A program made the translations under genes and the position numbers. DNA of 63,132 nucleotides, filler included, from Sluysia triapertura (lineage: Eukaryota), in NCBI GenBank assembly GCA_046118255.1. It is 5 parts of 5 records of this genome, joined end to end, with 100 filler letters (N's around TTAATTAATTAA, not from the genome) between each part and the next. Parts side by side here need not be neighbours in the genome. Positions count along the whole stretch, not along the records: positions 1 to 11,027 come from JBJNIA010189930.1; 4 more parts are not named here. One strand, 5' to 3'. Under the pieces are notes generated by a model that ran no database searches, was not told the DNA's origin, and saw only the letters and a list, made by a program, of their open reading frames with translations. The first letter of the stretch is position 1. Each line of letters begins with the position of its first letter. Positions 4,892-8,900 of the stretch are shown in pieces.

Positions 4892-5800
4892 ATGCATTTG
4901 ATAATGTATAAAATAGACTTCTACTACCATCTCGGATTACTGTCTTTAGAAAAAATCTATCAAATCATGAATGCCCGAGATTGTCAGTTGAATAAAGAAA
5001 TATTGCGTACAAAACTGGCAGAGGCTATAACAAATCCCGATCTGGTCGCTCCATTACTGCCGTTAGAAGAAGGCGTATTCGGCAGATTAATGAGAGAAGT
5101 ATTGTACACTTACAAATGTAAGAAAGTGGAAGTCCAACTAAGACCAGCGACCGAATGTACAAATTAACTATCAATAATGTACGGAAAAATAGAAACTTAT
5201 TTAGAACCTGTAACAAGGGTTAAATTTCCTAGTGATAAAATTAAACCGAAAGTAATGCATTGTTCAAATGTAATGGAATATAGGATAGATGAAAATTTAT
5301 AGATTTCACTACCACATAGAACTCAAGTTAAAATACAGGAAATTATTGGATTAACGGAACTAAAAGGAAAATTAAAATTCTTGGCTACAAAAATATACCC
5401 CATTCAGGCATTTATACAAATGAAGACACGCAAGCGGCATGGCAGGAGATACTGTTCCCTATAAAAAGATCAAAAGTGTTAACAGATACAATAGATAAAG
5501 CGACTGTAGAAAAAGATAAATTTCGAATTGTTACTAGGACCAGAGAATTTTAAAAAAGCCGCGTAAAACACACTAAGACAAATTTGGGGTAGTCTTCTAA
5601 TTTTGGGTAAAGCCTTTTCAGGATTAATTTATATTTATATAATAATTAAGGTAATTGCATTAATAATATCTCAAATTTTTTCTGTTGTAGGAATTTATAA
5701 GATTTCAGATTTTACATGGAAATTAATAATAGGTATTCTTGCAAAATATCTTTTACATCATCACGCAAACTCACAAATAAATGCACTAAGAAAAGAAAGA
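4892..5800 (+). pseudogene. env: C-terminal half of a chuvirus-glycoprotein-like (class III/gB-type) envelope protein, disrupted
   Basis: Reading through stops and frameshifts: RDCQLNKEILRTKLAEAITNPDLVAPLL..GVFGRLMREVLYTYKCKKVEVQLRPATECTN*LSIMYGKIETYLEPVTRV..HCSNVMEYRIDENL*..SGIYTNEDTQAAWQEILFPIKRSKVL..FSGLIYIYIIIKVIALIISQIFSVVGIY..WKLIIGILAKYLLH; matches the motif order of chuviral G ending in TM helices. Confidence 0.75.
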
Positions 5801-5951
5801 ACAAGAACCGAAATGAAAATGTGGTATTACAAACAATGCAAAACAATGAAAATGAAAAAATTGAGGAATTAAAGGAAAATTTTTAAAAATCACAAGATAA
5901 AATTGAAAAAATTCAATTACTCCCATAGCGCCAATACCAAATGTAGTATAT

Positions 5952-8900
5952 ATGATAATATGTGCTAATAACAATTACAACAATTCTGAGGGGCCAATGG
6001 CGAATGTTAAAATTAATGGAAGAACAATCTTGGCACATGTAGATACAAGAGCTGTGGCATCATTAATCAATGAAAACCAACTAACAGAAAAAGAACAAGG
6101 AAATCTTGCAAATCATTTTTCACATATATCAGGAGTTACAGGAGATGCTATACACATTGTTGGAGTGATGAAAGCTGTATGCGAGATAGGACAGAATAAA
6201 GTTTAAATAAAGTTAGGATTAATGAAAAAGTGTCCTGAAGACATTATATTGGGAATGGATATATTATCACAACTAAAAGGAGTAATACTGGATTTCGACA
6301 GGGTCAAACTAATGGATACTTATTCGAATAGAACTATCAGCGATGTTTATATTGATGAACCATTATGGTTACTGAGCAGAACGGAGTATATGATGCCAGG
6401 AAAAACAAATAGTTCATTAACTGACCGAATCATGTTTATAGCCACAGAAATCAATCAGGAAGAATTAGATATATGCATAGCAGATTCAATCTGTAACACT
6501 TGTGTAGGAAAGTTCGAATTATAAACTATACAAACGATAATAAATTGTTATTTACAGGAACCAAATTAGGAAAGATTGTCAACTATAAAATAACAACACA
6601 TATTAATGCAGTAACAGAGACAACAAAAGGCAATACAATAAAACTACAATGCGATATATGAGAAGAGGATTATGGAGAAATCCAAATTAACAACAAAAAT
6701 CTAACTAAGAGACAAAAAGAAAAACTATACGAAATTATATATCGCTATCCAAGAGCAATCTCGAAAAACAAATACGATATCGAGGATTTCATAATCATTA
6801 AACATGAAATACCACTAACAGAAGTTAAAGTAATTCGAAGAAAACTTTACAGAATTCCTACTTTCAATCAAAAAGAAATGCAAGATCAGATTGATACCAT
6901 GAAAAAGGCTGGAGTAATACGACCAAGCTTTTCTCCATTTTCATCACCAGTATTACTAGTTAAAAAGAAGGACGGTACGATGCGATTCTGTATATATTTC
7001 ATAGAGCTGAATAAAATAACACGAAAAGATGTATTCCCATTACCACGAATAGACGAAATGTTGGATAAATTAGGAAATGTTACTTACTTTACAATTTTAG
7101 ATCTACAAAGCTGATATTGGCAAATTGAAATAGCAGAAAAAGATAAACATATAACAGCGTTCACATGCTGAAATGAGTTATACGAATGCGAAAAAATGCC
7201 ATTTGGTATGACCGCTGCACCAGCAACTTTTCAACGTTGTATGAATTTTATGTGTAAGAATGTCATGATATACATAGATGACATTATAATATTTTCAAAA
7301 GGCTTTAAAACTCACTTAGAAGATAGATAATATCTTGAAAAAGTTAGAAGTCGCCAGACTCAAAAGAAAACCCACGAAATGTGTTTGGGCAGAAGAAAAA
7401 GTTGAATTCTTAGGACATATAGTGTCTAAAGATGGCATCAAACCAAATCCAAGGAATATCGAAAAGGTTGTTAAATTTCCTCAACCAGACAATGTTAAAA
7501 AGGTTCAAAGCTTTTTGGGATTAGCCAACTATTATAGAAGGTTTGTTAGGAACTTCGCAAAAATCGCACAACCTCTTATGCAATTAACAAAGAAGGATGC
7601 GGAATTTAAATAGACTGATGGTCAAACAAAGGCATCAAATAATTGAAAGAACATCTTACCACAGCGCCATTATTAATCTTTTCCGATGTTAGTAAGCCTT
7701 TCATATGACGCCATAGGAGCTATATTAGGACAAAAAGATAGCAATAATTTAGAAGCGGTTATGGCTTATGCTAGTCGAAGACTCATTAAGGCAGAAATGA
7801 ACTATTCAAGCATAGAAAGAGAATGTTTGGCAATTGTATATGCAACTAAATTATTTAGATATTACTTATTAGGATGAAAAGTTTATTTGTATATTGATCA
7901 TAAACCATTAACTTACTTGTACAACCACAGAGATGAAGTTATTCGATTAAATAAATGGTTTAATAAACTTTCTGAATTTAACTTAGATATTATTTATAAA
8001 CCTGGCAATTTAAATAACGGAGATGATTGTATGTCTCGGCTCACTAATGTAGACGATCACGGAAAAACTATGACCATATCAGAGAATATACAAAATTCTG
8101 AAGAAATCATTAAGCACCAAAGAGAAGACAAAGAGATTTCGACTATTTTGAATGCGTTAGCAAAAGGAACCTTAAACGAATTATAAGCAAAACGATTAGC
8201 CATAATCGATGGAATATTAAGATTTAAAAATAATAAAGATGAATGGAAACCATCATTCCAGAATAATTAATCATACTATATTAATACAGTTTCACGATAT
8301 TCAATTAGGTGGTCATTTGTCTACAAGAAAAACCTTGTCAATATTAAAAAGTAAATATTGTTGGGAAAACATGGAATCCGACATTAGGAAAAGGTATAAA
8401 GATTGCTCAGTTTGTTGTCGACGAAAAAATACAGGACAAAGACAAAAGTACTATTCAAACCAATTCCCGTGCCATTATCGCTACGGATATCATGGGTCCT
8501 CCTCCAGAAACTATCAATGGAAATAAATATATACTTTTATTTGCTGACAATTTGACAAAATGACCAGAGGCTTATTCAATGCCTAATCAAAAAGCCGAAA
8601 CAGTGGCGCAAGTCTTAGTAGAAAAGATAATATATAGATACGGAACTCCTCGAAAATTATTAACAGATCAAGGAACTAACTTCACTAATGATGTAAGTAA
8701 ATCTGTGGCAAAGATTTTTAACATTCTTAGAATTTACACATCAACTTACCATCTACAAAACGATGGACTAGTAGAACGTTTTAATAGGACTCTCATTAAC
8801 ATGATTCAATCTTATGTAAACAGTAGACAATCTGATTGGAATTTATGCTTCGCACCATGTCATTTTGCGTATAAAAGTTCCGTACATCCATAAACTAATT

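Follow-up and report, generated by a model that had tools for sequence, protein, structure and literature searches.

Gypsy elements with env placed ahead of pol have been described twice. In Burro elements of planarians, reported in 2019, env lies in frame between gag and pol and displayed matches to mononegavirus fusion proteins, and the region between protease and reverse transcriptase was called dUTPase-like (PMC6431247). BURRO1 was reported to be silenced by PIWI (PMC8532177). Chary and Hayashi (2026) described errantiviruses of nematodes, bryozoans and flatworms with an HSV/gB-type env in the order GAG-ENV-POL, and named six Schmidtea families, Smed_errantivirus_1 to 6 (PMC13524379). An env-before-pol layout is thus not new, these elements having displayed it already (PMC6431247, PMC13524379). 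The original prediction had also pointed to Anakin, a BEL/Pao element carrying a glycoprotein of the same family (PMC7642597). This link proved valid for env, but not for pol, which is of the Pao family in Anakin and gypsy-type and preceded by env in the present case: the nearest relatives of env and of pol are gypsy polyproteins, and no Pfam match to the Pao peptidase family was recorded in the DNA analysed. Troyka was rejected as a match since, as described, it has no env and displays CG ends (PMC12440569).

The window, i.e. the whole stretch analysed, comprises 63,132 nucleotides from Sluysia triapertura and has the composition of AT-rich animal DNA. It contains, at positions 4895-9331, a fragment of about 4.4 kb displaying env, protease, reverse transcriptase (RT), RNase H and integrase in this order on the + strand, all of them broken. 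We consider it a dead piece of a gypsy retrotransposon whose chuvirus/gB-type env lies ahead of protease, RT, RNase H and integrase, most likely what is left, at the 3' side, of a single-frame Gag-Env-Pol element of Burro type after gag and half of env had been lost (probability of about 0.86). A rough tiling of 4890-9329 displayed 11 frame runs and 12 stops, and this copy is dead and cannot make a Gag-Env-Pol polyprotein. The suggestion of a gypsy element with env before pol was borne out both by its relatives, which are gypsy-type polyproteins (40-56% to the window pol), and by the pol order PR-RT-RH-IN with a DDE integrase, which characterizes Ty3/gypsy elements (Metaviridae). Neither direct LTRs, nor a primer-binding site, nor target site duplications were found around the fragment, and no direct repeat scored above shuffled sequences, as expected in a cut copy.

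The C-terminal half of env occupies 4895..5800 (+). Pfam family PF24664 (Monjiviricetes_fusion) matched three of the six stop-free pieces taken from 4883-5883 (E-values of 2e-11, 1.2e-3 and 7.5e-7), and the complete frame-2 read, with X at stops, matched it at E 5.7e-23, covering positions 325-621 of the 653 in the profile; no match to it was obtained in the two remaining frames of the env region. Most of the motifs initially noticed were recovered on the + strand (YLEPVTR with REVLYTYKC in frame 2, SGIYTNED and ILFP in frame 1, 5332-5550) together with the hydrophobic stretch, except that the reported GEV reads REV, with R for G. This stretch corresponds to residues 8-49 of the 5567-5869 read, with the membrane anchor at about 5590-5715, and its 42 residues could, judging from hydrophobicity, cross the membrane twice. 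Env homology begins within the gene at about 4895-4910, which corrects the start given previously; the fragment is cut at about 4900, where depth in run X1 falls. No match to Gag or to the N-terminal half of the glycoprotein (G) was obtained upstream of this start, nor elsewhere among the 156 pieces into which the window was translated in six frames (best i-E values of 0.82 and 0.18). A possible C-terminal fragment of a Sec7 (ArfGEF) domain abuts the env break at 4760..4885 (-), where the match is weak (PF01369 E 0.0012, 19 bits for a cut-off of 22; cytohesin-3 E 0.049).

Comparison of env with 1.84 billion representatives (phmmer) yielded 210 matches at E 0.001 or better, the top ones embedded in polyproteins (195-226 bits) and the stand-alone glycoproteins of about 650 aa reaching at most 75 bits. 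The closest relative, P0001, scored 226 bits (E 6e-62) with 41-43% identity (41% over 305 aa), other relatives being lower. Fold comparison was carried out on relative P0021 instead of the broken env of the window: its AlphaFold2 model, based on an 82-row alignment (pLDDT 81.5; a single-sequence model with pLDDT 33 was set aside), was most similar to the chuviral G of Tacheng tick virus 4 (E 1.6e-43) and to post-fusion HSV-1 gB (E 8.6e-14, TM 0.34). By profile match on the window itself and by predicted fold through P0021, its env is thus a chuvirus/gB-type class III glycoprotein, as had been proposed. A sequence search of the PDB with the G profile recovered gB at no better than E of about 0.009, ranked under a low-complexity huntingtin match, and none of the 21 stretches fitting the G pattern in viral contigs was confirmed.

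About 200 bp separate the end of env from the gypsy protease. This env tail and linker (5800..5990, +) switches frames and holds no capsid: the transmembrane piece of env, the NENEKIEELKEN linker and the protease are read in frames 2, 1 and 3, respectively. Its A fraction reached 0.50, compared with 0.41 in env and pol and 0.33 in upstream DNA. The idea of a coding linker with frameshifts is consistent with this richness in A, which is that of the coding strand, although transmembrane piece, linker and protease all differ in frame in this copy. The protease (5990..6300, +) was recognized from the piece 5907-6203 (RVP, E 4.5e-4), and its catalytic motif reads DTRA instead of the DTGA given previously. 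Env ahead of protease with no gag in between was confirmed by the succession of PF24664 and RVP matches, and gag was never located between G and protease in the 13 giant relatives described below. The anchor tryptophan and the protease aspartate lie 108 codons apart in the window and 87-206 aa apart in seven of the 17 RT-bearing relatives, and the distance from protease to YxDD is 410 in the window and 401-433 in all 17. In run X1, 10,302 contigs mapped to 4040-9330, mostly less than 95% alike, which indicates a multi-copy family. Other copies in this run bridge the junction: among the X1 joints listed, four out of 15 connect the env tail with the protease start. These joints bring modest support, since each is a single short contig with unknown letters in between and X1 is possibly the window's own sample.

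Downstream, the region between protease and RT (6300..6510, +) was homologous to the same region of the relatives (tblastn, 20-30% over 5994-6494). It is followed by RT, with YIDD at 7271, and RNase H (6512..8040, +), both broken (tblastn, 37-51% to relatives; RT_RNaseH E 0.0029), and by a broken integrase with zinc finger, core and C-terminal parts (8260..9331, +; Integrase_H2C2 E 7.5e-15, rve E 4.5e-6; at most 56% to relatives), whose frame closes at stop 9331. Integrase, RT and G trees, from which rows covering less than 75% of the query were left out, displayed no starred group containing the window row; the G tree was a quick version with the best 45 of 151 matches. The RT tree was not used for placement since the window row stood on a long branch, likely due to a frame switch inside the read.

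The architecture of intact relatives was more informative. Out of 104 candidates, a first protein search retained two, each combining G and proteases in a single chain; a cluster mate of 4844 aa (P0003) united G with several proteases as well as ankyrin, RT, RNase H and integrase. Among 5637 candidates of 2.7-4.1 thousand aa in a search of long proteins, 13 carried the same G, 12 of them with RT and integrase, always after G. A 3700-codon frame of the Env-Pol kind was further found on one contig (locus L001). These single-frame relatives support the view of an Env-Pol polyprotein as the natural state of the family. Continuity of env and pol in one frame, a Burro trait, is broken in the window copy and intact in relatives, and for the window's family it is, like an upstream gag, taken by analogy from the latter, the closest env relative being 43% identical.

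Several features of these relatives deserve mention on their own. Protease-like repeats numbered up to seven in one polyprotein, before and after RT (P0003 and others). A second hydrophobic pair was observed after integrase in P0003, P0005, P0006, P0008, P0010-P0016, P0019 and P0035, which suggests another putative membrane protein, and P0017 displayed an Ig-like domain at this position. The post-integrase extensions of 13 relatives left no trace in the window at 9300-10500 (best i-E 0.17). Both L001 (12085-13470) and L002 (10617-12104) contained a downstream extra frame with RNase_T (DEDD exonuclease; E 0.0011 and 1.4e-5); DEDDy extra frames have been reported for rotifer LTR elements (PMC5408684).

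Likeness to Burro and GYPSM1 lies in the chuvirus-type env before pol and in the Burro cargo types displayed by relatives of the window env: Bcl-2-like in P0009 (E 0.0015), SUMO/ubiquitin-like in P0011, and ankyrin in P0003, P0009 and P0011. In contrast to Burro as described, the window copy is a broken and compact piece of 4.4 kb with a single protease, which follows the anchor at about 108 codons, and with neither gag, Bcl-2, ankyrin nor LTR. Domains of the Burro cargo (Bcl-2, SUMO-like, BIR, MATH, ankyrin) were not detected in 4895-9331, and the distance between env and protease leaves no room for ankyrin repeats; any upstream cargo would lie in the lost 5' part. The fragment was not filed as Burro proper since giant size and cargo were not encountered, Burro itself being compared by description. 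The GAG-ENV-POL errantiviruses share with the window a gB-type env and its position upstream of pol in a gypsy element, and their ectodomain, set between a signal or transmembrane segment and a transmembrane segment, resembles the G of the relatives; the published ones differ in being intact and mostly multi-copy, whereas the window copy is cut and decayed with inverted instead of direct flanks (PMC13524379). Three 8-residue motifs of the Smed_errantivirus_1 env gave no identical protein among the proteins compared. Relative to print, the element is one more diverged and compact family of an already described design. As a dead fragment of a published design, the single copy carries little weight; the design was shown here to span single frames of 2.6-4.8 thousand aa.

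The original prediction offered two explanations for the missing gag, i.e. deletion of an upstream part or supply in trans. A profile built from ten N-terminal regions found no gag within the 63-kb window (156 six-frame pieces). It matched ten of the 13 giant relatives within their first 440 residues (seven of these ten are in the profile, the other three, outside it, scoring E 1e-41 to 4e-51). Pfam results on gag regions (Retrotrans_gag in P0015, E 3.9e-7; Ty3_capsid in P0009, E 3.5e-4; zf-CCHC) agreed for P0015, P0009, P0025 and P0041. In two of the three remaining giants, the first residue corresponds to an internal position of a relative with Gag; internal starts of this kind were recorded for P0001, P0006, P0007, P0021 and the L002 frame, and no placement against Gag-bearing relatives was obtained for P0002, P0003, P0005, P0029 and P0035. 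Since gag is N-terminal in ten of 13 giants and never between env and protease, and since compact spacing occurs in seven of 17 RT-bearing relatives, gag was most likely, as far as sequence comparison indicates, lost with the 5' end rather than supplied in trans. Of the two explanations, deletion thus gained from the same-frame N-terminal Gag of these giants, and supply in trans found no support, most relatives carrying Gag in frame.

This bears directly on the proposal that the element was naturally gag-less and borrowed capsids in trans. The window's 63 kb are indeed devoid of gag, and P0002, P0003 and P0005 begin 130-200 aa before G with no match to Gag or to Gag-bearing relatives. Yet the first half of env is missing from the window as well, so this copy is plainly cut; in-frame Gag is found in most relatives, and P0001, P0006, P0007, P0021 and the L002 frame start inside Gag-bearing proteins, so that a gag-less origin appears very improbable. 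The compact junction would be a secondary one if the ancestor had been a long Burro-like element, with additional proteases or ankyrin repeats located after env and ahead of the last protease, that underwent an internal deletion before copies spread. At least two protease motifs precede RT in nine of the 17 RT-bearing relatives (three in P0001, the best env match) and the window integrase shares 52-56% identity with such long, multi-protease relatives compared with 43-49% for the compact ones, for which reason the compact spacing could be due to a deletion. The window spacing falls nevertheless inside the range of intact compact relatives and the short junction was observed in several diverged X1 contigs, so we regard this history as rather unlikely; it alters the size of the ancestor, not its Gag-Env-Pol order. 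Finally, a gappy assembly (N runs from 11028) and the frequency of stand-alone G proteins of about 650 aa among the 210 env matches might suggest chance neighbours or an assembly chimera, in which a free chuvirus glycoprotein insertion came to lie beside an ordinary gypsy pol. The best env matches are embedded in polyproteins, far above the scores of the stand-alone proteins, the same relatives rank best for env and for pol in the same order, and env and pol do not differ in base composition, all of which makes such an origin extremely improbable.

Besides the 3' part of a Gag-Env-Pol element, which we retain, the inverted arms around the fragment raise the question of a larger unit. The left arm (3794..4440, +) and the right arm (9800..10451, -), delimited by blastn, alignment and end sequence, both start with TGTAA, at 3794 (+) and 10451 (-), and carry a TATA-like box inward. 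They are about 650 bp long and diverged, similarity being confined to two blocks (blastn: 3858-4029 versus 10242-10411, 81%; 4306-4432 versus 9812-9940, 82%) with about 280 bp in the middle devoid of alignment. Their plainest reading is two separate insertions of a common repeat. Alternatively, the whole 3794-10451 unit could have been mobile as a Ginger-like or pack-type DNA element bounded by inverted ends, with env-pol and the Sec7 piece as cargo. The arms scored 590 when inverted, whereas 20 shuffled versions reached 268-316 and the direct orientation 264, which speaks for such a unit, as do the outer TGTAA ends, which fit TGTNR, the terminal pattern of gypsy and Ginger elements, and, as in Ginger1/2, are inverted around a gypsy-type integrase (PMC2836005). 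Ginger elements, as described there, differ by TIRs of 40-270 bp, a 4-bp target site duplication and absence of RT and env, whereas the fragment has RT and env, long and patchy arms and no duplication (ATAT versus AGTT at the arm ends). The unaligned middle of the arms, the far greater X1 depth of the inner arm block than of the outer one, as for an independent repeat, and the failure to find a second such unit also argue against it. So does a second inverted pair made of unrelated repeats in the same window (20303-20829 and 30079-30582, 74% over 537 bp, not coding as read). Movement as one DNA element is accordingly quite unlikely. We give slightly less credit still to the idea that the env-pol fragment between inward TGTAA promoter arms behaved as one unit, either as a DNA-mobile step from LTR retrotransposon to Ginger (PMC2836005) or as a convergent source of dsRNA or small RNA against the enveloped retroelement family. 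The arms would gain importance if shown to delimit a mobile unit. They displayed no credible match to loci L001 and L002, the arm motif was absent from the metagenome contigs searched, and folding of the arm-core consensus gave no compensatory pair out of 24 (two sequences only). Rfam returned two matches on 3000-11000, both under threshold, and comparison of the flanks with 164 retrieved proteins returned nothing credible.

For a working Gag-Env-Pol ancestor, the relatives suggest how one polyprotein might give rise to an enveloped particle. Each of the 12 relatives compared in this respect displays a hydrophobic segment and then a YDC/FDC start ahead of G, and G ends in a membrane anchor. 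Once the single Gag-Env-Pol chain had been made, the signal-like segment before G would direct the ectodomain into the ER, with signal peptidase releasing the N-terminus of G; the anchor would then bring the chain back to the cytosol, where the element's own protease could separate Pol from the tail of env. Gag and Pol would thereby face the cytosol, with G on the lumenal side, a disposition fitting an enveloped particle. Release of Pol by its own protease from a membrane-anchored fusogen, as originally proposed, is a reasonable inference from this domain arrangement. How a membrane-crossing Gag-Env-Pol protein is cut and how the capsid-to-enzyme ratio is set are questions for the whole class; titles and abstract starts of the matches listed revealed no paper on either subject.

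Elsewhere in the window, open frames of 131-378 codons at 34927-36063 (-), 54621-55370 (+), 59475-60119 (-) and 2456-2851 (-) matched no credible Pfam family, and weak Pfam matches under cut-off were recorded for Zwilch, kringle and RING at 44264-44818 (+), 21993-22430 (-) and 60643-60978 (-). The frame at 54621-55370 (+) is strongly hydrophobic. Fragments of a Pogo/Tc5-type transposase occurred at 31885-32238 and 46330-46857 (+; DDE_1 E 1.1e-10, HTH_Tnp_Tc5 E 7e-4). A host gene of the PRDM type, possibly PRDM8/13-like, was recognized by Pfam from a PR/SET exon at 14247-14639 and a C2H2 zinc-finger exon at 18581-19663 (+).
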